In this document: positions 8,145 to 30,768 of the stretch, piece by piece
Layout of the letters: every line of letters begins with the position of its first letter
How positions within the stretch are numbered: position 1 is the stretch's first letter
Assembly (NCBI RefSeq): GCF_000007225.1
Contig: NC_003364.1
Location: 1,620,001-1,652,000, forward strand
Length of the DNA: 32,000 nucleotides
Direction of reading: 5' to 3'
DNA from: Pyrobaculum aerophilum str. IM2
GTDB taxonomy: Archaea; Thermoproteota; Thermoprotei; Thermoproteales; Thermoproteaceae
Translations under genes and position numbers: made by a program
Notes under the pieces: model-generated
Told to the model about the DNA's origin: nothing
Database searches by the model: none
Seen by the model: the letters and a program-made list of their open reading frames with translations, nothing else

Positions 8145-9473
8145 GTGTATTACGTCGCAAAAGCCAGCCAGCTTTTTATAGAGAGCGGGACGAAATTCCA
8201 ACGCGATATAATATGGGCAATGGGCGTCATGAAATTCGCCGCGGCCAGGGCAAACGCCGAATTAGGCTTGTTGAGCTGGGAGAAGGCGTATGCAATTATG
8301 GATGTGGCGAGGGAGATTATGGAGGGGCTTCACGACGGGCGTATTGTCGTAGACGTCTTCCAGACGGGATCTGGCACGGGGCTTAACATAAATGTAAACG
8401 AGGTAATTGCGCAGAGGGCTTTGGAGAAATTCGGCATCTCCCTCCACCCCAATGACGACGTAAATCTCGGCCAGTCCTCAAATGACGTAGTGCCAACTGC
8501 CATAAGGCTCGCGGTGATTAAGGCATGGAGCGATAAACTGAGGCCAAAGCTAATTAAGTTAATTGACGCGTTAGGCGCCAAGGCGGAGGAGTTTAAGACT
8601 GTTGTGAAGGCGGGGCGGACGCATTTAAGAGACGCCTTGCCCGTCACCTTCGGCCAAGAGCTCTCAGGATACCGCGACGCTTTCGCCAGAAATCTCAAGG
8701 CCCTTGAGTCTTTGGGGGAGTTTGTAAAGGAGGTGCCAATAGGCGGCACTGCGGTGGGAACTGGCGTGAACACGCACCCCTCCTTCGGGGAGAGGGTTGT
8801 GGAGATTATAAACGCCGAGACGGGCTTGGCGATAAAGAGGGGAAACCCCTTTACTGAAATGAAGCTTTTGACAGATATCCTCCTCTTCTCCGGCGGCTTG
8901 AGGGCGCTGGCTGTGGATCTGTTACGGCTCTGCCAAGACTTAAGGCTTATGTTCTCCGGGCCTTACACAGGCTTGGGGGAGATCGAACTGCCCTCGCAAG
9001 AGGAGGTGCCCGGCTCTAGCGCCATGCCGGGCAAGACTAATCCCGTCACGCTTGAGGCTACAATGCAAGCCGTTGTTTACGTGCTGGGGCTTGACGAAAC
9101 AGTGAAATGGGCCGCGTCGCTTGGGGAGTTCGAGCTGGCCATGGGGATACCTGTGGCCGGCTGGGCCACGGTAAGGGAGGTGGAGGTGCTGGCCGAGGCT
9201 TTGGGGAAAATTACTGATCTCGTGATTCTGAATATGAAGCCTAAAGTGGACATCATGAAGAGTTACGCCGAGAGATCCGCGGCGCTAATCACTTTACTCG
9301 CGCCGATAATGGGGTACGACAAGGCCAGGGAGGTGGCGGGGAGATCAATTAGAGATGTGTTGAGAGAAATGGGATTAGACGAGTCAGAAATTGAAAAATT
9401 GCTTGATCCCGCGAATTTGACTACTCCAGGTTTTAAGGTTAGGCGACGGCATAAAAACGGCTCTCAGAGCTAA
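8145..9473 (+). CDS. fumC: Class II fumarate hydratase / aspartase-family lyase
   Basis: Signature GSSAMPGKTNP, plus TGSGTGLNINVNEV, SSNDVVPTA and GRTHLRDALPVTFGQE. GTG start lies 1 nt after the previous stop. Confidence 0.88.
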   Translation: MYYVAKASQLFIESGTKFQRDIIWAMGVMKFAAARANAELGLLSWEKAYAIMDVAREIMEGLHDGRIVVDVFQTGSGTGLNINVNEVIAQRALEKFGISLHPNDDVNLGQSSNDVVPTAIRLAVIKAWSDKLRPKLIKLIDALGAKAEEFKTVVKAGRTHLRDALPVTFGQELSGYRDAFARNLKALESLGEFVKEVPIGGTAVGTGVNTHPSFGERVVEIINAETGLAIKRGNPFTEMKLLTDILLFSGGLRALAVDLLRLCQDLRLMFSGPYTGLGEIELPSQEEVPGSSAMPGKTNPVTLEATMQAVVYVLGLDETVKWAASLGEFELAMGIPVAGWATVREVEVLAEALGKITDLVILNMKPKVDIMKSYAERSAALITLLAPIMGYDKAREVAGRSIRDVLREMGLDESEIEKLLDPANLTTPGFKVRRRHKNGSQS

Positions 9474-9884
9474 TTCGACTCTCCTTTTCCCCACTCTCGC
9501 CGATGTTAGATGTGAAGTGATGTAATTATATGCCAAGCCTTTAATGCAGAAAACTGCGCCCCCTCTGGTTTACCAAACATTTAAAAAGGACGCCAAAGCC
9601 GCAATCTGTATATACAAATGTCAGCTGGGTTTTATTCAATGTTTAAATCTAAGCGCATTTCCATCAGCCTCAGGCGTCGAATAGGGCCTAAGGGGAAATC
9701 CATTAAACCTTTAAAGAACTGCCACTCCCACCACGCCCCGGGCCGGGCATAACTAATGGGCCAAAGGCTGTGGAAGCCCCTTTGGGACGGAACCGGCTAT
9801 GGGGTTGATAGTCCCGGGCTCTCTGCGGGAGGAGTAAACGCGTAGCCGCATCCCGGAGGCACCTGGGGCGAAAAGGGAACGTAA

Positions 9885-10874
9885 TTAACCGCCTCGTAGT
9901 TTTAAAATGTAATTATACGCCGAATACGCGGCTATTGCGCCGTGGGCGGCGGCTATTTGAATTTGTTTAAACCCCCTCGGCATTGCAGATGTACAATCGC
10001 CGGCGGCGAATAAACCCGGTATATTTGTCTCCATCGCCTCGTTTACTTTAACGTATCCGTCGTCGGTTGTAATTAGGCCGATCCTTTTAAAAAACTCCGC
10101 AGGCGGCTCCGCGCCGATTTCTATAAAAATTCCGTCTATTTTCAAAACCCCCTCCTCGCCGGTATCCGTCCTTTTTATTACAGCCTCTCTAAGCGCCTTA
10201 TCGCCACGCAACTCTTTTACGATTGTATTCCACAAAATTTCAATTTTCTCGTGGTTTAAGAGCTTCTGATAATGCGGCTGAGCCCTCAGTCTATCCCTTT
10301 TGTGAATTAGATATATTTTCGAGGCGTAATTTGTGAGCAATAAGGCGGCTTGCGCCGCGGCGTCGCCGCCGCCCATGACGGCTACCACTTTATCTCTAAA
10401 GAGGGGTGCGTCGCAAGGGGCGCAGTAACTCACCCCTCTTGCGTTAAACTCCTCCTCCCCTGGCACGCCTAGTTTTTTCCTACGCTCCCCAACGGCGATA
10501 ATCGCCGTTAAGCTACGAAAATCTCCGCTGTTCTCCGTCTTAATAACAAAACTACCGCCGTCTCGCCGAATATCCTCTACCTTATCCAATAGGATGGAGA
10601 CGCCGTATTTCCTAACGTGAGATTCAAATACTCTGGCTAACTCGGGGCCTTGTACGCTTCGGAAGCCGAGGTAATCCTCGATTAACCCCGCCTTTGTTAA
10701 CTGACCGCCTACATCTTCTGTTATAATAAGTGTATTTAAACCGAAACGTGTGGCGTACATAGCGGCTGCAAGCCCTGCGGGACCTCCCCCCACTATAATT
10801 ACATCTAACAACTGGCTCCCAACGGCTTCTAGGACGTCTTGGGCCAACGTGATTCTCCTTAAATCAAGTTTCAC
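9885..10874 (-). CDS. trxB: Thioredoxin reductase (FAD/NAD(P)H pyridine nucleotide-disulfide oxidoreductase)
   Basis: DVIIVGGGPAGL, redox-active CAPCD, GGGDAAAQAALLL and GDCTS motifs. I prefer the GTG 10874 start because a CTTATATC TATA-like element at about 10893-10900 lies inside the longer ORF that starts at 10907. Confidence 0.85.
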   Translation of the reverse strand: MKLDLRRITLAQDVLEAVGSQLLDVIIVGGGPAGLAAAMYATRFGLNTLIITEDVGGQLTKAGLIEDYLGFRSVQGPELARVFESHVRKYGVSILLDKVEDIRRDGGSFVIKTENSGDFRSLTAIIAVGERRKKLGVPGEEEFNARGVSYCAPCDAPLFRDKVVAVMGGGDAAAQAALLLTNYASKIYLIHKRDRLRAQPHYQKLLNHEKIEILWNTIVKELRGDKALREAVIKRTDTGEEGVLKIDGIFIEIGAEPPAEFFKRIGLITTDDGYVKVNEAMETNIPGLFAAGDCTSAMPRGFKQIQIAAAHGAIAAYSAYNYILKLRGG

Positions 10875-11048
10875 ACACTTACCACGTTGTGTAGATATAA
10901 GGATCAATTTATCGCGATTTCAATTGGCATTAAGCGCTTTGTATACATATAATGTAAAGACAAAACTTATCAAAAATATTTTTATAAAATTCATTTATTT
11001 AATACTTATTAAAAAAGTAAATTATTAATATAAAAACTAATAAACTAT

Positions 11049-11228
11049 CTAGTGGTGGTGCGGCATTCCTTGCGGCCCGTGTTTTAAGTAATGCTCTGGG
11101 TTTTTTTCAAATGCTTCTTTACACAGAGAGGAGCAGAAGTAGTACACCTTCCCCTTATACAAAGTTTTATAGCTTGCCGTGGAGGGATCTACCTCCATAC
11201 CGCATACTGGGTCAATTTCTTTGTGCAT
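11049..11228 (-). CDS. YHS/TRASH-domain metal-binding mini-protein (59 aa, below the ORF-track cutoff)
   Basis: Hand translation: MHKEIDPVCGMEVDPSTASYKTLYKGKVYYFCSSLCKEAFEKNPEHYLKHGPQGMPHHH*. It carries the DPVCGM...YYFCS..C..F...P..Y pattern of YHS/TRASH domains and a His-rich tail. Confidence 0.8.
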   Translation of the reverse strand: MHKEIDPVCGMEVDPSTASYKTLYKGKVYYFCSSLCKEAFEKNPEHYLKHGPQGMPHHH

Positions 11229-11264
11229 AGATAATAAAAAAGTGTTTATTTAAAAAATTAATGT

Positions 11265-11861
11265 TCAACCTTCAACCTCGCCGAGGTACTTACCGTGCCA
11301 ACTGTGGAACCAGACAGCGCCGTTGTAGCCGTTTACGCTGAGCATTTGCATATCGCCGCCTATTTTAAAGTGGAAGGTGTAATAGCCGGGGAAGACGTAC
11401 GCCTCTTCAATCTCGGCGCCTGGGAAATATTTAGCCAACCACCTCTCAGCTATAGACCTCGCCTCCTCTTCTGTAATCCTCATTGGAGCTCCGTACCACA
11501 TCATTGACTGCGGCTCTGGGTGTATAAAGCCGTTGGGAAATACTAAAATTTCGTATTGAGGCTTCTCGCCGATGCCGATAATTACGTAGTAACTGTTACT
11601 ATATTTCTCTATAGAAATTACATCGTACCCGGTCCTTTGTTTTACATACTCCCCTACATTACTGTCATTGACATTGGCTATGCCGCCCCACCAACCCATC
11701 ATTGGACAGCCGCCCATCATGCCGCCCCACCAATTAGCCTCACTCCCCCAGCCATATGTTGGACCTCCCCACATTGCCTGTGTGAATACCACTATAGCTA
11801 CTATAGAGGCTACTACAATTGTTATCGTCACCACCTTTAGTATTGTATTTTTGTTTTCCAT
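11265..11861 (-). CDS. Membrane-anchored PepSY-like protein with a Trp/Gly/Met-rich CPMM segment
   Basis: N-terminal TM helix, then MWGGPTYGWGSEANWWGGMMGGCPMMGWWGG. The C-terminal part (ITEEEARSIAERWL...MLSVNGYNGAVWFHSWHG) resembles PepSY. ATG 11861 lies about 26 nt from the GGTATATAC element; the alternative is GTG 11879. Confidence 0.7.
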   Translation of the reverse strand: MENKNTILKVVTITIVVASIVAIVVFTQAMWGGPTYGWGSEANWWGGMMGGCPMMGWWGGIANVNDSNVGEYVKQRTGYDVISIEKYSNSYYVIIGIGEKPQYEILVFPNGFIHPEPQSMMWYGAPMRITEEEARSIAERWLAKYFPGAEIEEAYVFPGYYTFHFKIGGDMQMLSVNGYNGAVWFHSWHGKYLGEVEG

Positions 11862-11964
11862 GTCTGTATTTGAATTCACAAGTGTATATACCTCCCGTGA
11901 AACTCTCAGGCGGAACTAACGGCGTACAGACATAAACTCTTTTAATAAACATTGTTTCACTTCT

Positions 11965-12441
11965 GTGAGACTCGTCGTTTTAATAGCACTGGCGGTTATC
12001 ACAACGTTTTTACTGGATTATGTACACGTCAAGATCATGTGCCCATTTTGCCCATTTCCATCGCCCATGCTACCCGTATTTGCCCTTCTGACTATTCTTA
12101 CGGTTGCTATATTCTACTTTTTCCTATACGGATTTAAACCTGTCAAGACGCAACCCCAGGGATTGTACTTTATAATCGCTAACTTGTTAAGGGAACCCGA
12201 GCGGTCTATTTACATAAAGGTGTATGAAAAGGGGGGCGAGGCCCAACTTTCAGAGGTGGCTAAAGAGCTTGGCTTAAGAAAACTAAGAGCTTGGAGGGCC
12301 GCCCAAAGGCTGGCGGAGAAAAAACTCGTGGTTTTAGATAAAAAAGCTGGTAGGTTAGTGGTGAGGCTGAGGCCCCTTGAAGAGCTGTCTGTACAACCAA
12401 TAAACCGCCAGAATTATAAACGCGATAAACAGAACGAATAG
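11965..12441 (+). CDS. Membrane-anchored winged-helix DNA-binding protein with a CPFCPFP motif
   Basis: Two N-terminal hydrophobic helices flank HVKIMCPFCPFPSPM. The C-terminal part GGEAQLSEVAKELGLRKLRAWRAAQRLAEKKLVVLDKKAGRLVVRL looks like a MarR/TrmB-type wHTH. GTG start lies about 20 nt after TTTTAATAAAC. Confidence 0.7.
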   Translation: MRLVVLIALAVITTFLLDYVHVKIMCPFCPFPSPMLPVFALLTILTVAIFYFFLYGFKPVKTQPQGLYFIIANLLREPERSIYIKVYEKGGEAQLSEVAKELGLRKLRAWRAAQRLAEKKLVVLDKKAGRLVVRLRPLEELSVQPINRQNYKRDKQNE

Positions 12442-12597
12442 TATAAAGCCAAATATCATCCATAGAAATCCCCACCACCCCATCCCCGGCCCCCACCATC
12501 CGCCCCACCAGCTGCCGCACATTGGACACTGGGCGTATGCAAATATAGTCAGCCCAAGCATTATTCCCACTAACAGTATTGGAGTTCTCATAGGCAT
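12355..12597 (-). CDS. 80-aa two-TM protein with an extracytoplasmic CPMCGSWWGGWWGPGMGWWG loop
   Basis: TM1, then the motif, then TM2. The motif is shared with the PepSY protein. A TTTATATTATT element lies just upstream of ATG 12597. Its 3' end overlaps the convergent wHTH gene by 87 nt. Confidence 0.65.
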   Translation of the reverse strand: MPMRTPILLVGIMLGLTIFAYAQCPMCGSWWGGWWGPGMGWWGFLWMIFGFILFVLFIAFIILAVYWLYRQLFKGPQPHH

Positions 12598-12710
12598 GAA
12601 TTACCAGTAATAATATAAATGCTCTCTGAAAATGCCCTTCTGTAAGGGTTTCACCACGTTGAAACAGAGATTTCACATAATTTAGATATTATGGGGTTTT
12701 CTCACAACAT

Positions 12711-13220
12711 ATGGCTCAAAGAAGATATCGTGTAAAAAAAGCTGGGTACCGTAAATACGTCTTTCTTGTCGCCGCTGTTGTAATAGCAATCTTGTCCGTC
12801 GTGGTAGCGATCTCGGCGCTAAAACTAATTAGCATTAAAGGCGGCGTTACCAATTACACCGCAACAAAGGCACTCTTTTACTACTCTCCGCCGTGTGGCT
12901 GTTGCGATATTTATTTGCAAAAATTAAAATCTCTTTTAGACATTGAGATAAAGGCTGTGTCTCCAGATGAGTTTTTAACGCTAAAAAGAGACATGGGTAT
13001 TCCAGAGAGCTTGCAGTCATGTCACACAATTGTCATTAACGGCAAGTATATCGAGGGTCACGTTCCCATATTGGCCGTCGCCGTTTTTGTCAACGGCGGC
13101 TTTGGAGAAGATGTGAAAGGGCTAGCCTTGCCACATAGAGAGTCAGATCCCAATACGTGGGAGGGGCCAGGATATTACGTTGTGTATAAAAACGGCACTA
13201 TATGGCGCGTCTACTCTTAA
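12711..13220 (+). CDS. Membrane-anchored DUF411/CopG-family copper-resistance protein
   Basis: N-terminal TM anchor, then YYSPPCGCCDIY...SCHTIVINGKYIEGHVP. This is the CxCC / CH / GHVP pattern of DUF411 (CopG). Confidence 0.8.
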   Translation: MAQRRYRVKKAGYRKYVFLVAAVVIAILSVVVAISALKLISIKGGVTNYTATKALFYYSPPCGCCDIYLQKLKSLLDIEIKAVSPDEFLTLKRDMGIPESLQSCHTIVINGKYIEGHVPILAVAVFVNGGFGEDVKGLALPHRESDPNTWEGPGYYVVYKNGTIWRVYS

Positions 13221-14227
13221 TTATATTAATTTTAGTTATAGTCTTAAAGGCAAGCAATGTCACTGTAGTATACTTCTGGCAACCCGGATGTCTAGGTTGT
13301 AAATATATGGAGGAGGTTGTATTTCTCGATCCCAAAGTAAAGTCCTTTCTTTCAAATATAAATTTCGAAAAGGTAGATATACGTGTAGTACAATCTATAG
13401 AGGGTTATATAGAGAGAATCGTAGTAGCACAGGGAGTAGCCTTGACATATATAAACGGCACATTTAAGGCATCAGGTAATTTACAAATGCGAATACTAGA
13501 AGTTAATAATTACGGCCGTATCCCTATTATCGGCACGCCTACTATTGTCGTTTTAGAGGTGGTGTCGGGGAAAAGATACATTAAGGGTTATCTCCTTGGC
13601 GCTTTGCCGCCCGATAAATTTCTTCTGTTTTTAAACGCTTCATTAACAAGAACAGAAATTGGCAAAGAGGCGGAAGATTTTCTACCTATAGTCCTCCTAT
13701 TTGTCGTTGTGCTGGGCGTAGCGTCTGCCATATCGCCGTGCGTTGTGCTACCCCTTGCAGTGGCTACTTCAAGGAGAAGGCTGGCTTATTTTTCCATTGG
13801 AGGTTTTTCGGGTTATGTCGCTTGGTCAGCTGCGTTGACTCTGTTCGGGTCGCCTATTGTTCTAGACAGATATCTCTCCACAGTTCTAATAATCCTACTA
13901 GGGGTTATGTACTTAATAGGCGCCCGAGGGCCTTATTGGAGAGTACAAACTTTTTTCCACAGAGTTGCGAAGGGATCTGACTTTCTCGCCGGCTTGTTTA
14001 TGCCGTTTATATCGCTTCCTTGTTTTATCCCCCTTTTCGGTATCGCCGGCGTTTTATCAATGGCGTTATTCGCCTCCCCTATGGAGAGGTTTTTGACTTT
14101 TTTCCTATTTGGCGCTACGCATACACTAGTAGTCTCTTTAATAAGCGCCATATTGAAATTACACAAATACCATGTATACATAACCCCGATTTTAATCGTC
14201 ATGGCTTTACTTTTACTATTTATCTAA
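13202..14227 (+). CDS. Thioredoxin-fold domain fused to a CcdA/DsbD-type transmembrane thiol:disulfide electron transporter
   Basis: Signal/TM segment, then VVYFWQPGCLGCKYM (CxxC). The C-terminal polytopic part has SPC (AISPCVVLPL) and LPC (ISLPCFIPLFG) motifs like CcdA/DsbD. It overlaps the CopG-like gene by 19 nt. Confidence 0.78.
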   Translation: MARLLLIILILVIVLKASNVTVVYFWQPGCLGCKYMEEVVFLDPKVKSFLSNINFEKVDIRVVQSIEGYIERIVVAQGVALTYINGTFKASGNLQMRILEVNNYGRIPIIGTPTIVVLEVVSGKRYIKGYLLGALPPDKFLLFLNASLTRTEIGKEAEDFLPIVLLFVVVLGVASAISPCVVLPLAVATSRRRLAYFSIGGFSGYVAWSAALTLFGSPIVLDRYLSTVLIILLGVMYLIGARGPYWRVQTFFHRVAKGSDFLAGLFMPFISLPCFIPLFGIAGVLSMALFASPMERFLTFFLFGATHTLVVSLISAILKLHKYHVYITPILIVMALLLLFI

Positions 14228-14751
14228 AGGCGCACCAAGAGGTTACATCAGCAACGCGAGGAGAGCCTCAATAGCGTGACTAAAAGTTCGGAACAAAGGG
14301 GCTTATTGATCGCGAGGCGCTGTTAAAAGTCTTGTACTGTTTCGGCAAAGCGTAACTTAGAGTTGGGAGTAGTTAAGAGGTAGGCCGACCGCCACGTGGA
14401 CTCAAGGGGCCGCCGGGCTGGGCTCGGGGTTATGCGAACACCTGCCTAGCCTCCATGGGCGGCCGCAGGTATCGTACCGGCGGCTTAGGCGACGCCGTCT
14501 GTAGTTGCCATCATCTGCGTCAAGCCCTGACGGAGAAGCCGCGCGGCTTTTCGGGACATGTCGAAAGCATTACCGTCAAAAATCGTACGTAAAAAAGGCG
14601 AGAATTCCGCAAAGAGATTTTTGTACTCCGTCTTATCGCTGATCGGCCTCGTGATATTATGGCGCCTTGGCCTCCTCTGATCTGTTGCCCCTATTTCCTC
14701 GCGGCGTTTATCTTGGCGCATAACGTCGTCGTGTTCGCGCTGTTGGCATCT

Positions 14752-14985
14752 ATGCCTAGATCCTTAGGCTACGCTACTTTATTCGCCGTCGTCGCGATGT
14801 TCACATTAATAGCGATCTTGTTGCCGCCGGCTGCCCTGGCGGGGTTCGTCTTGTTTGCTCCGTTGAAGCTATCGGCGTACGTCCTAGCCGTGGGGAGGAG
14901 TATAAAGATGGGAGTAGTTGTGCTGATAATATCGGCGTTGTTAGAGGCGCGCGTGATAATGGATGCGTGCTCCACCGCCCATTAG
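14752..14985 (+). CDS. Hypothetical small membrane protein (weak call)
   Basis: MPRSLGYATLFAVVAMFTLIAILLPPAALAGFVLFAPLKL... has 2-3 hydrophobic helices and no recognisable family. It competes with the minus-strand ORF 14485-14721. Confidence 0.25.
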   Translation: MPRSLGYATLFAVVAMFTLIAILLPPAALAGFVLFAPLKLSAYVLAVGRSIKMGVVVLIISALLEARVIMDACSTAH

Positions 14986-15105
14986 CGCCCTCAAATGTCG
15001 ATTTATGCCATGCCGGCGGCAACGACTGCTGTAATTATTGTTTTAGGCAGGATCTAATTCGTCTTTAGGGCGTAGGCTGGAGGACTATCTATATCTGGCG
15101 GCGCG

Positions 15106-15507
15106 TTATTGTGCCGCCAGCCTTACCAGTAAAGTTTCGACGTCTATAGCGCCTTTCGTCTTGGCCAGTAGCTCGCGGTCTTGCGTCACCAAGACTAGTC
15201 CGGAGGACTCCGCCACGTAGGCGTAGCTGGCGTCGTAGAAGGTCAAGCCCCGCTCCACGGCCACCCTCAAGACCTCGTCTAGGGGCGGGTCCTCCAACAC
15301 CTTGAAGCTGGACAACACCTTTTTCAAATGCCGAGACGCGGCGGCCCAGTCCACTCTCCCGAGCCTCGCCTCTTTCCACAACGCGTTGCCTGCCTCGTAT
15401 ATGGTCAAGTGCAGAATGGCCAGTTTCTCCCTATGTTTGATCCACTTGTCGTAATGGGCCGCGAGGGCGTATAGCGCGGAGGCGTCCACTAGGTACTCAA
15501 CGGGCAT
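15106..15507 (-). CDS. vapC: PIN-domain ribonuclease toxin VapC
   Basis: MPVEYLVDASALYAL (first acidic residue), FYDASYAYVA and LVTQDRELL motifs. It overlaps the upstream antitoxin gene by 11 nt. Confidence 0.88.
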   Translation of the reverse strand: MPVEYLVDASALYALAAHYDKWIKHREKLAILHLTIYEAGNALWKEARLGRVDWAAASRHLKKVLSSFKVLEDPPLDEVLRVAVERGLTFYDASYAYVAESSGLVLVTQDRELLAKTKGAIDVETLLVRLAAQ

Positions 15508-15721
15508 TTCGCGCCTCCCTCACCGCTTCCACCCACTCCCTCTCCGAGATGCCCGACAGCGCCCTCCTCAGCTCCTCCAGCGATTTCGCGAGCTCCTCTT
15601 CCTCGCGCCTTTTGATCTCTTCCTCCAGCGCCCTCTCGACCACCCTCCTGATATCTATACCCAGCCGTTTGGCCTTCTCCTTCAACTCCCTCCTCACTCT
15701 TACGCTGATGATGACTGACAC
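15497..15721 (-). CDS. vapB: VapB-type antitoxin (ribbon-helix-helix)
   Basis: The N-terminus SVIISVRVRRELKEKAKRLGIDIRRVVERALEEEI is typical of RHH. GTG start; gene pair with vapC. Confidence 0.8.
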   Translation of the reverse strand: MSVIISVRVRRELKEKAKRLGIDIRRVVERALEEEIKRREEEELAKSLEELRRALSGISEREWVEAVREARNAR

Positions 15722-15727
15722 GAGCTA

Positions 15728-15743
15728 ATACGCATATGCGTAT
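15728..15743. promoter_or_regulatory. Perfect 16-bp palindrome ATACGCATATGCGTAT between the vapB TATA box and its start codon (candidate operator)
   Basis: Verified base by base. It lies 7-22 nt upstream of the vapB GTG. A related CGTATACG palindrome sits at about 15754-15761. Confidence 0.6.
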
Positions 15744-16080
15744 ATAAGCTTAACGTATACGATAAACGTAATCTAGCGCAAGACGAAAAGCCACGATACG
15801 CCAAAATTTCAAGCGCTTTCAGTCTCACAGCGACGGCGCGATAAGATGGCGCCATTGCACCAACGCCGGCTACCCTACAAGATTTACATTGTACTGTTCT
15901 TTGTGATGAGTGAAAAACAGGTATTAAGGTGGAGGTGCATAAGTGGCGCCGAGAGGCTCAAGATATACGCCGCCGAGAGATACGGCTTGAGGCGGGGGAG
16001 CTATCCTCTCGCCTCCTCACAGCCGTTTTAAAGCCGGCATATTACGGCGCGGTTTTATCATAAAAACTTATATCTTACAG

Positions 16081-18465
16081 ATGATATGTTGTGTGATGGA
16101 AATATCAGTTGGGCTTAAGGTCAAGGGGCGCGAGACCGTGTTGAAAATTTTGGGCATGCACTGCGCCACTTGTTCTTTAACAGTACAAAAGGCCCTTCTC
16201 TCTGTGCCGGGGGTAAAGTGGGCTGAGGCATCGCTTGCGAGCAACGAGGCGAAGCTAGTTGTTGACCCAGAGGCCTTGGACTACTCCGAGTTGCTCAAGG
16301 CAGTGAGGCGCGTTGGCTACGACGTCTTTAGAGAATCTGCGTATATCGCCGCTGAGTTCCGGCCTGAGGAGGCCGAGGCGGCGGAGAGGCGGGTTAGGGG
16401 CTGGGGGGTGTTTTATGCCAAGGCCAACCCCGCCACCGGCGTCATTTACGTGGAATACAACCCGCTGGAGTTAGACGCGGACATGGTTGCTAAACGCTTA
16501 GAGGAGGCCGGGTATAAGGTGAGGGAGGTTAAGAAGGGCGACGTCGAGGTGGACGTAGATAGACGCGTCGCGGAGCTGGAGGCGAGGGACATAAGGCGGA
16601 GGCTTATACCAGCCGTCTTGATATCCACAGTTCTGGCTCCAACGATGTTGGGGATTAAGGTAGTGCCTCCGCTGGCGCAAATGGCCTTGACGGCAATAGT
16701 GCAATTCTACTCCGGGTGGAGGTTTATATCAGGCGCGGCGAGGGCCTTTAGGAATAAGACGGCGAATATGGACACGCTAGTCACGTTGGGCACTTTAAGC
16801 GCCTTTCTCTACAGCTCATACGCCGTATTCTCCGGGGAGCCTACTTTCTTTGAGGTCTCTGCCGTGATCATCACATTTATACTGGCTGGGAGATACATCG
16901 AGATTTTAATGAAGTTGCGCACAGGAGACGCCGTTAGGAAACTGGCGCAGCTCCAGCCCCCCAAGGCTAGAGTTAAGAGGGGGGACGAGTGGGTGGAGGT
17001 AAACGCCTCTGAGGTAAAGCCCGGCGAGGTCGTGGAGGTGAGAGAGGGCGAAAGAATACCAGTTGACGGCTATGTCGACGAGGGGGCCGGGGCCGTGGAC
17101 GAGTCGGCGTTTACCGGCGAGCCGCTTCCAGTGGAGAAAAAAGCCGGCGACTTAGTCCTGGCGGGCACCGTATTAATTAAGGGAAGGCTTTTAATAAGGG
17201 CGACGAGGACGGGAGGGGCCACCTATTTGGCGGAGGTGGTTAAACTCGTGAGGCAGGCCCAAAACGCCAGGTTGCCTATACAGAGACTCGTCGATAGGGT
17301 ATCCGGCGTTTTTACCTGGGCAGTAATGGGAGTGGCTACGGCGACCTTCGCCGCGTGGATAGCCCTGGGCGCTCCCGTTTGGCAGGCCCTCATGTTCGCA
17401 GTTGCCGTCCTCGTCGTGGCGTGTCCATGCGCTCTAGGTCTAGCCACGCCGCTCGCTATAGTTGTAGGCGTCGGCAGAGCCGCCGAGAAGGGTCTATTAA
17501 TTAAAAACCCCGAGGCTATTGAAAAGGCGCTGAGGGCAAAGTTCGTTGCTTTTGACAAAACCGGCACTCTCACCGCCGGCGCTCCCAAAGTCGTGAAGTA
17601 CGTGGGGGATGAACACGCACTTGCCCTGGCGGCGTCGGCTGAGGCGAAGTCTTCCCACCCCATCGGAGTTGCAGTGGTGGAATTCGCCATAAAGAGGGGG
17701 GCAAAGCTGGCGGAGCCTGAGGCTTATGACACGTTCCCCGGCATGGGCGTATACGCCAAAGTCAACGGGGCTGTCGTGGGGATCGGCAATGAAAAGCTAG
17801 TCGAGGGTATGGGGGCAGAGATCCCAGGGGAGATCCGCCGCGAGGCGGAGAGATACCGGGCAGAGGGCTACACAGTGGCGTATATTGTCGTAGACGGAAG
17901 AGTGAGGGGGTTTGTGGTAGTGGGCGACGAGATTAGGCAAGAGGCGCGGGACGTAGTGGAGAGGTTGAAGAGGTGGGGGTATCAGCCTGTGATAATTTCC
18001 GGCGACCACGAGGTTGCTGTGGCTAAAGTTGCGGAGAGGCTGGGCATTGGAAAATACTACGGCGGCAAAACCCCAGACGAGAAGGCAGAGATTGTGAAGG
18101 AGTTGAGAAAAGAGGGCGGGGTTATTTTCATAGGCGATGGGATTAACGACGCCCCAGCCTTGGCGTCGGCAGATATGGGCATAGCTGTGGCCACTGGGAC
18201 AGAAGTGGCGAAAGAGGCGGGAGACGTGGTGGTTAGAAGGGGCGATTTGTCTAAAGTGGCTGAATTTATTGACATCTCGAGGAAAATTATGAAAAACGCT
18301 AAATTCAACCTCTTCTGGGCTTTTGTCTACAACACCGCCCTTATACCCATATCCGCCGGCCTCTTCTACCCGGCGCTATACCTCAGGCCGGAGCTCGCCG
18401 GCTTGGCAATGGCGTTGAGTAGCATATCAGTTACTCTCAACTCCCTAAGGCTCAGAAGGGCGTAG
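16081..18465 (+). CDS. copA: Copper-translocating P1B-type ATPase CopA
   Basis: HMA domain [16 protein letters not shown] motif ([11 protein letters not shown]), DKTGTLT and [10 protein letters not shown]. The alternative start ATG 16096 fits the ATAAAAACTTATATC element better. Confidence 0.93.
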
Positions 18466-18506: not shown

Positions 18507-18869
18507 GTGTGCCTGGCAATTTTAGAAAAGGCGTCTGATGCCAGGAGCGCTATTATAAACGCTAAAAGGCTTGTATCAAAGCCCTTTGGGGAAATGACTG
18601 ATGAAGAGGCGCTTAGATATCAGCTTATAGTTTTGGTGGAGGCTTTGGCGTCTATGTGTATGAAATTCGCCCGACTGGCCTACGGCCGTTTTTACTCCTC
18701 CTACAGACAGTGTCTTGTGGAAATGGACAAGGAAATGGGCACTAACTGCGGAGATGTGCTGAGCTCTCTAATATCGCTTAGAAATCTGCTAGTTCATAGA
18801 TATTTCCAAGTCGACGATCAGAAGCTCTATAACTCAGTAAGGGGAAACTTCACTTGTGTGGAGAATTGA
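18507..18869 (+). CDS. hepT: DUF86/HepT-type HEPN domain protein (putative RNase toxin)
   Basis: LISLRNLLVHRYFQVDDQKLYNSV contains the R-x4-H HEPN motif in the DUF86 context. Confidence 0.75.
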   Translation: MCLAILEKASDARSAIINAKRLVSKPFGEMTDEEALRYQLIVLVEALASMCMKFARLAYGRFYSSYRQCLVEMDKEMGTNCGDVLSSLISLRNLLVHRYFQVDDQKLYNSVRGNFTCVEN

Positions 18870-18884
18870 GAAAGTGGTGGAAAA

Positions 18885-19247
18885 ATGCTCCCTGTATATG
18901 AGATAGACATTAAAGAGGTAGTGAAAAAACTGAGTGGGTTATTGGGCAGGAGGCGGCAAGCTGTCGTCTTCGGCTCAGCCGCTAAATGGCGAATAGTACA
19001 CGACATAGATGTCTTAATTGACGGCGCAGATTTTGACGAGGCCCTGCGCCTCGCCGTAAAGGTCGAGGAGATTTTAGGGATTCCCGCTGATGTGGTTCCC
19101 GCAGAGCTTGCCCCGCCGTGTTTAATAGCTGAGGCCTTAACGGAGGGGGTGTTAATCGCAGTTGACTGGGATTATTTTGACGAGCTTCTCTACAAGTCGG
19201 TGGGACTGTGTCAAGACGTGAAAATAAAGTGGCGCGAAATCCTCTAG
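18885..19247 (+). CDS. mntA: Minimal nucleotidyltransferase (MntA-type)
   Basis: VVFGSAAKWRIVHDIDVLI (the GS...DxD motif of pol-beta-fold NTases). It lies 15 nt downstream of the HEPN gene. Confidence 0.75.
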   Translation: MLPVYEIDIKEVVKKLSGLLGRRRQAVVFGSAAKWRIVHDIDVLIDGADFDEALRLAVKVEEILGIPADVVPAELAPPCLIAEALTEGVLIAVDWDYFDELLYKSVGLCQDVKIKWREIL

Positions 19248-26895: not shown

Positions 26896-27677
26896 ATTTG
26901 CTATACGAGCTCTATAGACAAAGCGGCCTTGCCTACTCTTATAGGCGCTATGTTACTGCCCTTGCCGCCGTCCCAGCGGGCACAGCGGCATCCGCCGGGG
27001 CTGTCGCCGCGTTGCTCCTCGGGCCGGTTGGAGGGCTTGCCCTGGGGTTAATGGCGGGCCTGCTGGCCTTCGCCGGGCTTCTCCTATACCCCGTCCACCT
27101 AGTCTCGGCGAGGAGGAGCCATTTTGAAAATAACTTTGTCTACACCCTCGGCGTGTTGCTCCCCCTTCTAGCCGCGGGGGTTCCGCTGGGTAGGGCCGTG
27201 ACAAGACTGGCGGAGGTTGAGGAGGATAAATATATCGCAAGAGAGCTCGCCCTCGCGGCTAGGGAGATGATTGTAATGGGGGCCAGCCAAGAGGAGGCCC
27301 TGGCCCACAGCGCAGAGAGAGTGCCCAGCGTGACGTATAGAGAGACTGTGGAAGTGCTGATTAGATCTGCTAAAATAACGCAGAGAGTTGACGCAGTGTT
27401 GCTGGCGCGCCTCGACTGGCTGTTGAGGAATAAACAAGTCAGGGCCCAGTCCTTAATCAGGTCGCTGTCTCTAATGTTTGAAATCTTCGTGGTGGCGGCG
27501 ATGCTCCTGCCCCTTATGGTTTACATTGTGGCGCTGTCCTTCAGCCCCCTCGGCGCGTTAGAAGTAGGCGGCCTTGCCTTGGATCCCCTAACTCTCATGT
27601 TGTTACTGGGAGTTGTATATACGCCTATAGTTGGCACTGTATTCTATATAATATTCGATTCAATGGTGCAAATATAA
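26892..27677 (+). CDS. FlaJ/TadC-like (T2SS-F-type) membrane platform protein, single domain
   Basis: 4-nt overlap with the ATPase gene. N- and C-terminal TM helices flank a cytoplasmic helical domain (GVPLGRAVTRLAE...GASQEEALAHSAERVPS). Confidence 0.5.
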   Translation: MNLLYELYRQSGLAYSYRRYVTALAAVPAGTAASAGAVAALLLGPVGGLALGLMAGLLAFAGLLLYPVHLVSARRSHFENNFVYTLGVLLPLLAAGVPLGRAVTRLAEVEEDKYIARELALAAREMIVMGASQEEALAHSAERVPSVTYRETVEVLIRSAKITQRVDAVLLARLDWLLRNKQVRAQSLIRSLSLMFEIFVVAAMLLPLMVYIVALSFSPLGALEVGGLALDPLTLMLLLGVVYTPIVGTVFYIIFDSMVQI

Positions 27678-27742
27678 AAGAATCTATTACAATCTGTGTC
27701 TACACAGTAAAATATTTAAGTAATTTCATTAGACGGCTTCAC

Positions 27743-28030
27743 ATGTGTTTAACCAGCGATTCTGTATTGAAGTTCTATGAAGAGATTGACGCGCCGCTTA
27801 AGTTATTAATCCACTACAGACTAAAGGCGAAGTTTGGGAAGACTTTTCAGGAAATTGTCTCCGAGGATCCTCATAATGTATATAAAGCGTTATCTAAGGC
27901 GTTGGGCGTGCACAACGCAGAACTATTTCTCCATATGCTATACAACTGGCTATTGAAGAAGAACTGCGCTACGGAGTTAAAATACGTCGAGATGTTCCTT
28001 GGGAAAATCTCAGCGGTGGGGACGTCATGA
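27743..28030 (+). CDS. Small hypothetical protein (95 aa), paralog of 28564-minus
   Basis: MCLTSDSVLKFYEEIDAPLKLLI...GKTFQEIVSEDP...HNAELFLHML aligns with the convergent ORF. A TAAAATATTTAAG element lies about 27 nt upstream. Its stop overlaps the ATG of the ATPase remnant (ATGA). Confidence 0.55.
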   Translation: MCLTSDSVLKFYEEIDAPLKLLIHYRLKAKFGKTFQEIVSEDPHNVYKALSKALGVHNAELFLHMLYNWLLKKNCATELKYVEMFLGKISAVGTS

Positions 28031-29386: not shown

Positions 29387-30035
29387 TCTTCCCATCTCTC
29401 ATTTTGGCGTATCTGTCGCAGTAAGTCAAGAGCTCTAAGTTGTGCGTTACCATTACAATTGTTATCCCCAGCTCTTTTTTCAACGTGAGGAAGGTGTCCA
29501 TGACCACTTTCGCCGTGGCGCTGTCTAAATTGCCCGTGGGCTCGTCGGCTAGCAATATGCGCGGCCTCGTGACTATGGCCCTGGCGATGGCCACTCTCTG
29601 TTGCTCGCCACCCGAAAGCTGAGTGGGCTTTTTCTTGGGATCCACGTGGCCCATCCCCACCAGCCTCAAGGCCTCAAGCGCCATCTCCCTCCTCTTTTCC
29701 TTGGGAACTCCTCTGAGAATTAGGGGCAACTCCACGTTTTCTAAAATAGACATGCGGGGTATGAGGTAGAATAATTGAAATACGAAGCCGATGTTCTTAT
29801 TGCGAAACTCGGCCAGCTGGTCGTCGTTTAAATCATTTAGCCTAGTGCCCGCCACTACCACCTCGCCCTCTGTGGGCTTGTCAACGCCCCCAACGATGTG
29901 GAGGAGAGTGGACTTGCCCGACCCGGAAGGCCCTATTAAACACTGGAAAACTCCCCTAGGCACCTCGAGGGTAACCCCCCTCAGCGCGGGATACTGGCCG
30001 TAGTACTTAACGACGTCTTTTACGACGATTTCCAC
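29370..30035 (-). CDS. ABC transporter ATP-binding protein (MacB/LolD-like subfamily)
   Basis: Walker A GPSGSGKSTLL, Q-loop, signature LSGGEQQRVAIARA, Walker B ILLADEPTGNLD and an H-loop VTHN. Confidence 0.9.
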   Translation of the reverse strand: MEIVVKDVVKYYGQYPALRGVTLEVPRGVFQCLIGPSGSGKSTLLHIVGGVDKPTEGEVVVAGTRLNDLNDDQLAEFRNKNIGFVFQLFYLIPRMSILENVELPLILRGVPKEKRREMALEALRLVGMGHVDPKKKPTQLSGGEQQRVAIARAIVTRPRILLADEPTGNLDSATAKVVMDTFLTLKKELGITIVMVTHNLELLTYCDRYAKMRDGKIIETG

Positions 30036-30117
30036 TAGCTCCTACGGCTCTGAATTAAAAAAGTTAACTCACTAAAAGTAAGGGGACAAGGTTATAAATT
30101 AACAACTGCCTTAACTT

Positions 30118-30768
30118 GTGAGTGTTGTCGACATAATTACGGCGTTTCTGCAACAAATGCCCGCCGTAGCGGTGGCCGTCGTACTTCTCTACGCCCTCCT
30201 TGATAGGAAACTAACGGCGCTAGAGCGGAGAATGGAGAAGGAGGTGGGCGAGCTGAGGGCAAAAACGTCTGAGCTCGCCGAAGAGGTAGTAGCCCAGAAA
30301 AAGGAGGTGGGGGAAAGGCTTGAAAGACTTGACAAAGGGATAGAAGAGCTGAGAGCGAAAATGGGGGAAGTTGACAAAAGGCTGTACGACCTCTCTAAAT
30401 TTATATTTTTATTTAATAAGTCTTTAATAGAAATTCACCATACTAGAGATATTGTAAGTGAATATGCCTTTATAACTCTTTCGAATCTTGTACAGATAAT
30501 ACCGCCGACAAAATCTAAATACTATACGGAAGAGGTCCGCGAGGAGCTTAAATCGCTTTTAAACAGAGTAAAGACCGGCCATTTCGATTGGAGAGATATT
30601 GCGAGATTAAAAGAGCTTGGGAAAGTAATTTACAAGGAGTGGTGGGAAACAGGTAGGGAGGACTTAATAAATTACTATTACCACCTCCAGCTGTATATCT
30701 GGCTGTTAGAGGCTAAGCTGCTGAGAGAGGGGAAAATGCCGCCTTCGCCAGAAGTTATATGGAGTTGA
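30118..30768 (+). CDS. TM-anchored coiled-coil protein with a conserved C-terminal KYYTEEVR/ETGREDL domain (multi-copy family, function unknown)
   Basis: N-terminal helix MPAVAVAVVLLYALLDRKL, about 70 aa of heptad-like E/K/L-rich sequence, then a C-terminal domain shared with the pseudogene at 6952-7705. GTG start lies about 22 nt after GTTATAAATTAAC. Confidence 0.7.
   Translation: MSVVDIITAFLQQMPAVAVAVVLLYALLDRKLTALERRMEKEVGELRAKTSELAEEVVAQKKEVGERLERLDKGIEELRAKMGEVDKRLYDLSKFIFLFNKSLIEIHHTRDIVSEYAFITLSNLVQIIPPTKSKYYTEEVREELKSLLNRVKTGHFDWRDIARLKELGKVIYKEWWETGREDLINYYYHLQLYIWLLEAKLLREGKMPPSPEVIWS

Follow-up and report, generated by a model that had tools for sequence, protein, structure and literature searches.

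A conserved gene module beside copA in Pyrobaculum aerophilum with a probable role in extracytoplasmic copper handling

Six short genes encoding small metal-binding, membrane and thiol-redox proteins lie ahead of the gene for a Cu(I)-type ATPase, copA, in the chromosome of Pyrobaculum aerophilum str. IM2. What do these genes do together, and is copper their common subject? The locus was analysed within a stretch of 32,000 nucleotides (NC_003364.1, positions 1,620,001 to 1,652,000), referred to here as the window and numbered from its first letter. An initial annotation, made from the letters alone, had read the six genes as an extracytoplasmic copper and thiol-redox module. All six open reading frames (ORFs) were recovered with the same coordinates, the Cys/Met motifs it quoted are all present in the translations, and the copA gene, placed about 1.9 kb further on, starts 1854 nt from the module end. 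Homology and gene context suggest a conserved Thermoproteaceae module that works alongside CopA at the outer surface of the cytoplasmic membrane, where it senses and handles copper, chiefly as Cu(I), a function we consider probable though by no means secure. The link to copper is well supported because of the copper-specific families CopG and multicopper oxidase (MCO), a Cu(I) pump that adjoins the module in five lineages, the statistical tendency of PepSY-like genes in different phyla to lie near copper genes, and the His/Met/Cys chemistry of the outward segments; the mechanism is one that we infer.

Components of the module and their conservation

The module and the pump comprise the following genes (aa, amino acids; TM, transmembrane):

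11049–11228, minus strand: YHS/TRASH-type metal-binding mini-protein, 59 aa
11265–11879, minus strand: PepSY-like ectoprotein (ORF, one TM helix at residues 13–31, family alignment)
11965–12441, plus strand: membrane-anchored one-component regulator with two TM helices and a putative winged helix-turn-helix (wHTH) domain (hydropathy, charge, homologs)
12355–12597, minus strand: p80, small membrane protein of 80 aa (intact ORF in five lineages, codon-position pattern)
12711–13220, plus strand: TM-anchored CopG-like (DUF411) protein (Pfam DUF411, PF04214; match to 6wis)
13202–14227, plus strand: Trx-CcdA, a signal anchor, thioredoxin-fold domain and six-TM CcdA-type core, 341 aa (fold search, profile-profile comparison)
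16081–18465, plus strand: CopA, Cu(I)-type P1B-1 ATPase with an N-terminal HMA domain (TIGR01511, 563.7 bits against 397)

CopA, whose start gene callers place at 16096, contains HMA (50.5 bits), E1-E2 and Hydrolase domains. In the Arguello classification, P1B-1 pumps are defined by CPC in TM6, YN-x4-P in TM7 and M-x2-SS in TM8, and this signature is complete in CopA (CPC at 448, YN-x4-P at 750, M-x2-SS at 777).

The DUF411 assignment was confirmed well above its Pfam cut-off (40.2 bits against 27, E 2.8e-10; residues 101–141, profile positions 1–39 of 48). The protein also matches CopG of Pseudomonas aeruginosa (6wis) with an E value of 4.5e-9, its motifs C62-G-C64-C65, S-C104-H105-T and G-H117-V-P aligning with CGCC, SCHT and GHVP, and the Cys/His residues of these motifs are invariant in 11 archaeal homologs, P. 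oguniense having the variant CSCC. Seven Lys and Arg residues precede its single TM helix, giving an N-in anchor, and the CopG-like domain is predicted to face outward. CopG is a copper oxidoreductase with a Cys-bridged tetranuclear cluster, whose gene often clusters with CueO, CopA, Cus and MCO genes (PMC8456105). The archaeal protein thus shares the DUF411 domain, the CxCC/SCHT/GHVP motifs, the extracytoplasmic location and the association with CopA and MCO with bacterial CopG (6wis; CutG of Rhodobacter capsulatus, cutFOG). Unlike the soluble periplasmic bacterial protein, however, it is TM-anchored, and its gene is translationally coupled to that of Trx-CcdA. No pairing of bacterial CopG with a Trx-CcdA fusion is reported in the papers on CopG that we consulted.

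The Trx-CcdA start overlaps the DUF411 stop by 19 nt, and an overlap of 19–22 nt is kept across lineages. The protein carries the motifs C30-L-G-C33 (DsbD-gamma-like), S-P-C180…P184 (SPC180VVLP) and L-P-C274…P277 (LPC274FIP). Its thioredoxin domain, as originally annotated, is borne out by a marginal Pfam match (Thioredoxin_2, 27.7 bits against 27) and by Foldseek, which assigned it to the Trx/DsbD-gamma fold with probability 1.0, with DsbD-gamma, SoxS and Trx among the matches (TM-score (target) ~0.6). The CcdA half of the assignment stands through intermediates, but not through any direct Pfam or PDB match: Pfam DsbD_TM and DsbD_2 gave no match at E ≤ 1, and a profile of the Pyrobaculum clade alone did not reach CcdA in the PDB. 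Comparison by hhalign joined the Pyrobaculum-clade alignment to that of remote relatives across both domains (probability 100%, E 2.9e-48, 286 columns), and these relatives alone match CcdA structures 2n4x (1.7e-35) and 5vkv (5.5e-23) as well as the DsbD gamma domain. DsbD_TM is matched by 8 of the 19 aligned family members and DsbD_2 by five. P179, C180, C274 and P277 are invariant across the 19 sequences, and both hydropathy and an AlphaFold2 (AF2) model with a predicted local distance difference test (pLDDT) score of 81.9 yield a six-helix core with the two cysteines in TM1 and TM4; a first model, built from a 4-sequence alignment, was discarded (pLDDT 49). We accept the 341-aa protein as a divergent Trx-CcdA fusion with transitive family membership; since direct Pfam and PDB searches failed, the CcdA assignment rests on one intermediate step.

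With the CcdA/DsbD family (2n4x, 5vkv) this protein shares the six-TM core, the TM1 and TM4 cysteines in a P-C…P context and an external CxxC thioredoxin fold like that of DsbD-gamma. In contrast to DsbD, the thioredoxin domain precedes CcdA, an N-terminal signal anchor is present, the alpha domain is missing and the family is very small, with 28 cluster representatives recovered by an exhaustive HMMER search of 1.84 billion proteins. It further differs from CcdA/DsbD proteins in being too divergent for a direct Pfam or PDB match and in an insertion within the thioredoxin fold, which the AF2 model renders as a β-hairpin of ~45 residues (residues 61–112, pLDDT 76–96), conserved in the Pyrobaculum clade. 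The gene of one remote Trx-CcdA relative (26% identity) and a P1B ATPase gene form a divergent pair.

The remaining outward-facing parts are rich in potential copper ligands. The longest ORF of the PepSY-like gene starts with GTG at 11879, most gene callers preferring an ATG at 11861. Its product consists of an N-terminal TM anchor, a variable Met/Gly/Trp-rich linker with GGCPMMGWWGG, and a conserved ectodomain in which the family alignment identifies E110, E122, M127, W128, H170, H192, W194 and H195 as invariant. We tentatively describe this ectodomain as two PepSY-like repeats, the repeat test being weak. The earlier PepSY label stayed below the Pfam threshold (PF03413, 16.8 bits against a cut-off of 24), only 6 of 22 family members reach E < 0.01 against Pfam PepSY, and no relative of the family was found in the PDB; some database sources label orthologs 'PepSY domain-containing'.

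In the small protein p80, a signal-peptide-like N-terminus (…AYA|Q) is followed by a CPMC motif, a region rich in Trp and Gly, a single TM helix and a tail on the cytoplasmic side, WLYRQLFKGPQPHH, which is conserved, basic and ends in QPHH; the predicted mature N-terminal peptide is QCPMCGSWWGGWWGPGMGWWG. That this short ORF is a real gene is borne out by substitutions that follow the order of codon positions 3>1>2 in all ten pairs compared and by indels that are in frame throughout. It overlaps the regulator gene convergently at the 3' ends, by 87 nt in the window (12355–12441) and by 70–90 nt in all five lineages (L011, L014, L103, L104 and the window), both frames being maintained, an arrangement that could provide antisense or transcriptional-interference coupling.

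The YHS assignment was upheld by a strong Pfam match (PF04945, 68.3 bits against 30.3, E 5.9e-19) with the Cys ligands present (Cys9, Cys32, Cys36, followed by a C-terminal HHH). Hydropathy revealed neither a TM segment nor a signal peptide in this protein, which is probably cytoplasmic, and a CopA-side chaperone is therefore its most likely role, instead of an outward-facing one. The idea that all six products face outward accordingly does not hold, as the YHS protein is devoid of hydrophobic segments and the regulator must keep its DNA-binding domain in the cytoplasm. The YHS gene follows the PepSY-like gene on the minus strand after a gap of 36 nt. Its orthologs (78–89% identity) occur beside copA in L014 as well as in P. 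calidifontis, and T. uzoniensis and L019 have them too; in P. oguniense the gene is absent, and no remnant was found.

Comparison of related genomes revealed the following arrangements (MAG, metagenome-assembled genome):

P. oguniense TE7: fumarase-trxB site as in the window, identical order; copA 90 bp after Trx-CcdA; no YHS gene
P. arsenaticum: site and order of the window; Trx-CcdA truncated, rest of the module and copA intact
P. calidifontis: complete core, located at another chromosomal site, with genes for Mn-catalase, CopA and YHS close by
Pyrobaculum sp. MAG (L013/L014): third site; one strand with copA, YHS, McoP-type MCO and PepSY-like, the opposite strand with wHTH, p75, DUF411 and Trx-CcdA
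T. uzoniensis: PepSY-like, YHS and wHTH genes beside a DsbH-type thioredoxin protein

The core (PepSY-like and TM-wHTH, p80, DUF411, Trx-CcdA) is thus complete in four Pyrobaculum lineages, while Trx-CcdA is truncated in the fifth, P. arsenaticum. At identities of 43–91%, all Cys motifs and the order of the genes are kept, and copA lies within ~0.1–2 kb in all lineages; it is the immediate neighbor of the module in P. oguniense and L014 and, in P. arsenaticum, of what remains of Trx-CcdA. In P. calidifontis, the Mn-catalase gene is situated between the module and copA. The strand block of L013/L014 reads PepSY-like, McoP-type MCO, YHS, copA, and its MCO matches P. aerophilum McoP (3aw5) with an E value of 5e-182. 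Co-localization of the genes in related genomes was hence found in five Pyrobaculum lineages, in conserved order, always near copA and once with a multicopper oxidase.

The arrangement had been considered unlike the archaeal cop locus of the Sulfolobus type (CopR/CopT, CopM/TRASH, CopA), and our analysis agrees: no CopR/CopT-type cytoplasmic HTH(+TRASH) regulator stands beside a chaperone and copA. Both loci share a small TRASH/YHS protein, here the 59-aa protein that is the only TRASH/YHS match in the window, and a Cu(I) P1B ATPase. Yet the regulator of the present module is membrane-anchored with an outer sensor loop, four further extracytoplasmic or membrane components are added, and the YHS gene does not adjoin copA in the window.

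The regulator and its candidate cis-elements

The regulator consists of two TM helices around a 13-residue outer loop, followed by a basic cytoplasmic domain that is probably a wHTH, its C-terminal 104 aa containing 23 Lys and Arg residues. The loop reads H21-x3-M25-C26-P-F-C29-P-F-P-S-P-M35, a motif kept in eight homologs. Its description as a wHTH protein gains support through a homolog, L024 (tblastn 6.5e-14), which passes the thresholds of HTH_24, MarR_2 and DUF7343, but the regulator's own Pfam matches remain sub-threshold (TrmB 14.9 bits, cut-off 25.6; MarR_2 14.1 bits, cut-off 27). Like ToxR/CadC-type and archaeal TM-wHTH (DUF7343) factors, it unites a probable DNA-binding wHTH and TM segments in one polypeptide, and it could read an extracytoplasmic signal directly, as a membrane-tethered one-component factor. 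It differs from those factors in its N-in topology with two TM helices, a C-terminal wHTH and a sensor cut down to a His/Met/Cys loop. We know of no characterized member of the archaeal TM-wHTH/DUF7343 proteins.

Three candidate cis-elements are located in the promoter regions of the module:

11884–11903: conserved promoter block GTATATACC-N3-CGTGAAAC (intergenic alignment, kept in all five Pyrobaculum lineages)
11954–11971: candidate operator 1, GTTTCA-CTTCTG-TGAGAC, one mismatch, overlapping the GTG start of the regulator (11965)
12648–12665: candidate operator 2, perfect palindrome GTTTCA-CCACGT-TGAAAC, between the divergent starts of p80 and DUF411

The promoter block may be read as a TATA-like box ~27 nt upstream of the PepSY-like ATG combined with a GTTTCACG half-site, which would suggest leaderless transcription; a copy of GTTTCAC on the minus strand occupies 11897–11903 in the same intergenic region between the PepSY-like and wHTH genes. 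With up to one mismatch allowed, the palindrome GTTTCA-N6-TGAAAC occurs twice in the window against 0.04 expected, and none of 100 shuffles reached two copies. The site at the regulator start is identical and in the same place in P. oguniense. Between p80 and DUF411, the half-sites are kept at the corresponding position in P. oguniense, P. arsenaticum and P. calidifontis with spacers that vary between species, and no further copies were found elsewhere in those comparison loci of 16–21 kb. An operator would be expected to show such a pattern, and the natural candidate for binding it is the wHTH product of the module itself.

The GTTTCAC 7-mer alone was rejected as a signal, four copies being found in the window against 2.8 expected; only the clustering and the palindrome are significant. 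A copy at 10868–10874, in the first codons of the trxB-like ORF that precedes the module and at its alternative GTG start (10874), is probably coincidental. A scan for sigma-70 promoters gave no excess over shuffles, the model not being applicable to archaea. In Pyrobaculum sp. 3827-6, a perfect palindrome lies upstream of DUF411 in the NCBI assembly (L018), which has no called gene in the copA region. The palindrome before DUF411 is retained in the Logan assembly of the same strain (L019, 1215–5098), where YHS, PepSY-like and copA are each split by frameshifts; these may be assembly errors or signs of a decaying locus.

The wider family, the proposed function and its alternatives

A genome scan with the PepSY-like family alignment identified at least 574 loci, distributed over Thermoproteota, Nitrososphaeria, Bathyarchaeia, Methanosarcina, Chloroflexota, Thermus, Actinomycetes and other groups; the figures that follow refer to the best 80 of these loci. 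A P1B ATPase is encoded within 10 kb at 23 of the 80, with the full Cu(I) signature in 11 cases and the CPH (CopB) type in some others. Genomes hold one to three P1B pumps, giving a chance expectation of ~2%. YHS genes are present at 10 loci, DUF411 follows immediately downstream at eight and an MCO gene occurs at four; among loci of at least 15 kb, 22 of 40 have at least one copper marker. Immediate neighbors of the PepSY-like gene are mainly SHOCT proteins (17), wHTH regulators (12–14) and DUF6114 proteins (10). The small ones are p80-like, with a Met/Gly/Trp-rich N-terminal segment followed by TM helices; Met/Gly/Trp-rich SHOCT or DUF6114 analogues of p80 adjoin PepSY genes in other phyla. 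A homologous two-TM wHTH gene adjoins the PepSY gene at 12 of 79 loci, ten times on the opposite strand, and all of these are archaeal. Ten such pairs come from Nitrososphaeria, Caldarchaeales and related lineages, and their outer loops are rich in His and Met and contain no Cys; His/Met-rich loops are typical extracytoplasmic Cu(I) ligands. The Nitrososphaeria unit (TM-wHTH/PepSY-like, DUF6114, DUF411) is self-contained among housekeeping genes. In five Nitrososphaeria/Thermoproteota MAG loci (L036, L038, L046, L051 and L081, ~9200–11600), this cassette, with a Cys-free His/Met sensor loop and the canonical CopG Met motif, is followed by YCII and BP74_N-domain genes. An independent co-occurrence in bacteria was observed in a Dehalococcoidia MAG (L086, 1019–3932), where a TrxB-like gene lies directly upstream of the PepSY-like gene and YHS is nearby.

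On this basis, the parts of the module would work together as follows. CopA exports Cu(I), and the cytoplasmic YHS protein, by analogy to TRASH chaperones, would feed CopA or buffer copper. Outside, the TM-anchored CopG-like protein may bind, redox-cycle or transfer copper at its CxCC/His site, as P. aeruginosa CopG suggests. Trx-CcdA would draw electrons from the thioredoxin system of the cytoplasm and pass them through the membrane to the CxGC domain that it carries outside, and thus may keep the outward cysteines of the CopG-like protein, p80, the PepSY-like protein and the regulator loop reduced. The Met/Trp/Gly/His/Cys-rich segments of the PepSY-like protein and p80 may bind Cu(I), serving to buffer the metal or to pass it on, for instance to McoP. 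The two-TM wHTH protein would read external copper or copper-driven thiol oxidation via its H-x3-M-C-x2-C loop and would control two divergent promoter regions, its own start included, via GTTTCA-N6-TGAAAC. The electron flow from Trx-CcdA to the CopG-like and CPMx proteins is suggested by the gene overlap and by the outward Cys motifs that co-occur with Trx-CcdA; the presence of a Cys-bearing loop, linker and small protein in the lineage with Trx-CcdA fits this idea of reductant supply. We propose that Pyrobaculum has elaborated a broader archaeal cassette (TM-wHTH/PepSY-like, a Met/Gly/Trp-rich small protein and DUF411) into a version that bears cysteines and includes Trx-CcdA. A more general proposal, which we regard as possible rather than probable, is that TM-wHTH, PepSY-like and a small Met/Gly/Trp-rich protein (p80, SHOCT or DUF6114), often with a CopG-like protein, form a widespread and so far unrecognized system of extracytoplasmic copper sensing and buffering. 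An archaeal transcription factor in the membrane would there read external Cu(I) with a 13-residue His/Met/Cys loop, and Pyrobaculum would have switched the outward ligands to Cys and recruited Trx-CcdA for their reduction.

Several observations weigh against a copper module of this design. Trx-CcdA diverges fastest of all components (60% identity to P. oguniense, against 88–91% for its neighbors) and is truncated in P. arsenaticum (L103, 5913–6558), where only residues 128–309 align and ORFs of 44 and 122 aa remain, and the Nitrososphaeria cassette contains a CxCC DUF411 protein with no adjacent CcdA. These facts weaken the reductant-supply idea and indicate that the coupling of a reductant to CopG is not obligatory; as the least conserved member, truncated in one species, Trx-CcdA may be accessory. 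Moreover, the Pyrobaculum clade, unlike bacterial CopG, lacks the Met pair (M-x6-M, LPGMPxGSPGM), M1 and M95 being the only methionines of the CopG-like protein. The position of the pair reads LPHRESDPNTWEGPGYY (aligned segment LPHRESDPNTWEG; LPHRE…TWEGPGYY in the Pyrobaculum clade), whereas DUF411 homologs of Nitrososphaeria retain LPGMPxGSPGM. In CopG, the pair ligates a further copper (PMC8456105), and with its loss the chemistry of the CopG-like protein may differ. The palindrome was not found upstream of copA in the window and is present only as separated half-sites in L013/L014. About half of the long PepSY loci have no copper marker within 10 kb, and the PepSY assignment itself is sub-threshold, for a family without a structural or experimental anchor. 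Finally, the trxB-like gene is adjacent to the module in three genomes that share synteny, so this adjacency is not independent evidence.

The same proteins might instead serve cuproenzyme biogenesis, in which Cu(I) exported by CopA would be captured outside and delivered, with thiol reduction of the TlpA/Sco kind by Trx-CcdA, to extracytoplasmic copper enzymes such as McoP, heme-copper oxidases or denitrification enzymes. This alternative overlaps heavily with copper sensing and handling, as components and chemistry are the same and the physiological purpose alone differs; we judge it rather unlikely. It would explain why one lineage has an McoP-type MCO between the PepSY-like gene and YHS-copA, and it suits the Nitrososphaeria cassette, which is found among housekeeping genes without an efflux pump in copper-dependent organisms. 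A precedent exists in R. capsulatus, where maturation of the MCO CutO needs CopA, the small protein CutF and, in part, the CopG homolog CutG (PMC8456105). However, the MCO is not in the module in four of the five Pyrobaculum lineages, no Sco, PCuAC or oxidase subunit genes are located nearby in the window, and a metal-type sensor regulator of its own together with a copA neighborhood is more typical of stress or homeostasis loci. Extracytoplasmic repair of oxidative damage by thiol and methionine reduction appears improbable to us. Here the Met/Trp-rich proteins would be sacrificial oxidant sinks, Trx-CcdA the electron source, as in the CcdA-Etrx-Msr pathways of Gram-positive bacteria, and the copper genes mere neighbors, a scheme undermined by the lack of a methionine sulfoxide reductase gene in any module locus examined, by the tight coupling of Trx-CcdA to a CopG homolog, a copper protein, and by the surplus of P1B ATPase, YHS, MCO and DUF411 genes near members of the PepSY family, hard to account for without a link to metal. 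In its favor, one remote Trx-CcdA relative sits among thioredoxin and disulfide-reductase genes, not copper genes, a TrxB-like gene is adjacent in some loci, and the Mn-catalase gene of P. calidifontis separates module and copA. Furthermore, pathways of CcdA and extracytoplasmic thioredoxin are reported to feed MsrAB in streptococci (PMC7034828), and Met-rich periplasmic peptides to act as hypochlorite sinks (Melnyk 2015).

That the module is directed at another thiophilic metal or metalloid (Ag, Hg, Cd, As or Au) rather than copper is, in our estimate, decidedly improbable. Ligands of the CxxC, CxCC and Met/His kinds have affinity for Ag(I), Hg(II) and Cd(II) as well, P1B-1 pumps of the Cu(I) type export Ag(I) too, and two PepSY-linked ATPases carry SPC in place of CPC. 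P. arsenaticum and relatives inhabit metal- and arsenic-rich springs, and a SHOCT membrane protein is reported to be silver-induced in Haloferax (PMC10694973). Yet the neighboring pump has the complete Cu(I) signature, the partners CopG and MCO are copper-specific, and neither mer nor ars genes occur within the window; Ag(I) would use the Cu(I) route, which amounts to breadth of specificity more than to a distinct function. Hardly credible, finally, is the view that Trx-CcdA belongs to a reductant pathway of cytochrome c maturation and that chance brought the genes together in an AT-rich patch gained by horizontal transfer. CcdA has its classical role in the biogenesis of cytochrome c, the P. 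oguniense ortholog bears a corresponding name in UniRef, and low G+C at third codon positions (GC3) hints at foreign or poorly adapted DNA. Against this, neither Ccm, Ccs or ResA genes nor genes for c-type cytochromes adjoin the module in the window, gene order and the DUF411 overlap are kept across lineages that harbor the module at three chromosomal sites, and a tiny family that is missing or truncated in some Pyrobaculum species is unexpected for an essential maturation factor.

CopA, YHS, CopG and CcdA are known families, and with copper handling as the preferred reading, the module would be a copper homeostasis locus with uncharacterized components. A bacterial analogue is the Scs system of Salmonella and Caulobacter (DsbD-like ScsB, ScsC, ScsD), the suppressor of copper sensitivity. 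Its logic would be shared, in that a DsbD-family membrane reductase gives electrons to extracytoplasmic thioredoxin-fold or copper-binding proteins against copper. The partners, by contrast, are unrelated (CopG-like, PepSY-like and p80 in place of ScsC, ScsD and CueP), the module is archaeal, and Trx-CcdA has no ScsB-type N-terminal domain. In the searchable literature we found no description of this archaeal arrangement or of CopG–Trx-CcdA coupling, none of a membrane-anchored wHTH protein with a sensor loop and operator, and no copper link for the PepSY-like or the Met/Gly/Trp-rich small-protein families; papers on PepSY concern unrelated multi-TM PepSY proteins. To our knowledge, archaeal copper handling outside the cytoplasm is essentially uncharted, the known CopA, TRASH chaperone and CopR/CopT acting inside, and the locus offers a lead to a defined extracytoplasmic pathway. 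Trx-CcdA is a candidate redox partner for CopG, and the regulator is a candidate membrane-embedded metal sensor with a defined candidate operator. The locus also provides a functional lead for three orphan families (PepSY-like ectoproteins, Met/Gly/Trp-rich SHOCT/DUF6114 proteins and TM-wHTH/DUF7343) that span hundreds of genomes, those of copper-dependent ammonia-oxidizing archaea included. The parts of the module are small and thermostable, making in vitro work straightforward.

Base composition and neighboring genes

The AT-richness noticed earlier is confirmed. Both spot counts of G+C are exact (25/60 at 12961–13020, 38/60 at 17041–17100), and 10908–14227 has 42.3% GC against 52.2% for the remaining window, the minimum among all 3.3-kb windows (mean GC 0.512, standard deviation 0.031). 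GC3 amounts to 0.40–0.57 in module genes against 0.65–0.79 in fumarase, copA and toxin–antitoxin (TA) genes, so the difference is one of codon usage, beyond amino-acid content alone. In P. oguniense, P. arsenaticum, P. calidifontis and one more Pyrobaculum lineage, the orthologous module likewise shows a GC dip and low GC3. The simple reading as a recent foreign island is not supported, since low GC3 is kept at three different chromosomal sites and the module matches or exceeds its flanks in conservation, nucleotide identity being 81–84% for the module against 75% for trxB. Exchange within the family or weak codon adaptation could underlie the low GC. Further sharp dips in the window are found at 2001–2500 (0.378), 27501–28000 (0.414) and 30001–30500 (0.426).

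The genes flanking the module within the window include:

9885–10907, minus strand: trxB-like gene, thioredoxin-reductase-like flavoprotein with CAPC (TIGR01292, 330.9 bits, just below the cut-off of 343)
15106–15507: PIN toxin, with a PF07362 antitoxin at 15497–15721

The trxB-like product is a possible cytoplasmic electron source. Its gene, separated from the YHS gene by a very AT-rich spacer of 140–175 nt, is probably a separate transcription unit. It was rejected as a core member, being adjacent only in the three genomes with the fumarase-trxB site and not in L014 or P. calidifontis.

The PIN pair lies inside a segment (14228–16080) that counts as inserted by comparison with P. oguniense, in which 90 bp lie between Trx-CcdA and copA; 430 bp of the segment are non-coding. 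A 108-aa multi-TM ORF in this segment (14659–14985) begins with MAPWPPLICCPYF, has no Pfam match and shows host-like GC3; its Cys-Cys-Pro start could be metal-related or due to chance. A HepT-like/Polbeta (HEPN-MNT) TA pair at 18507–19247 follows directly 3' of copA and, together with the upstream PIN pair, brackets it. The window as a whole matches contig DUJP01000028.1 of the MAG GCA_013329805.1, and identical copies were detected in several hot-spring metagenomes.

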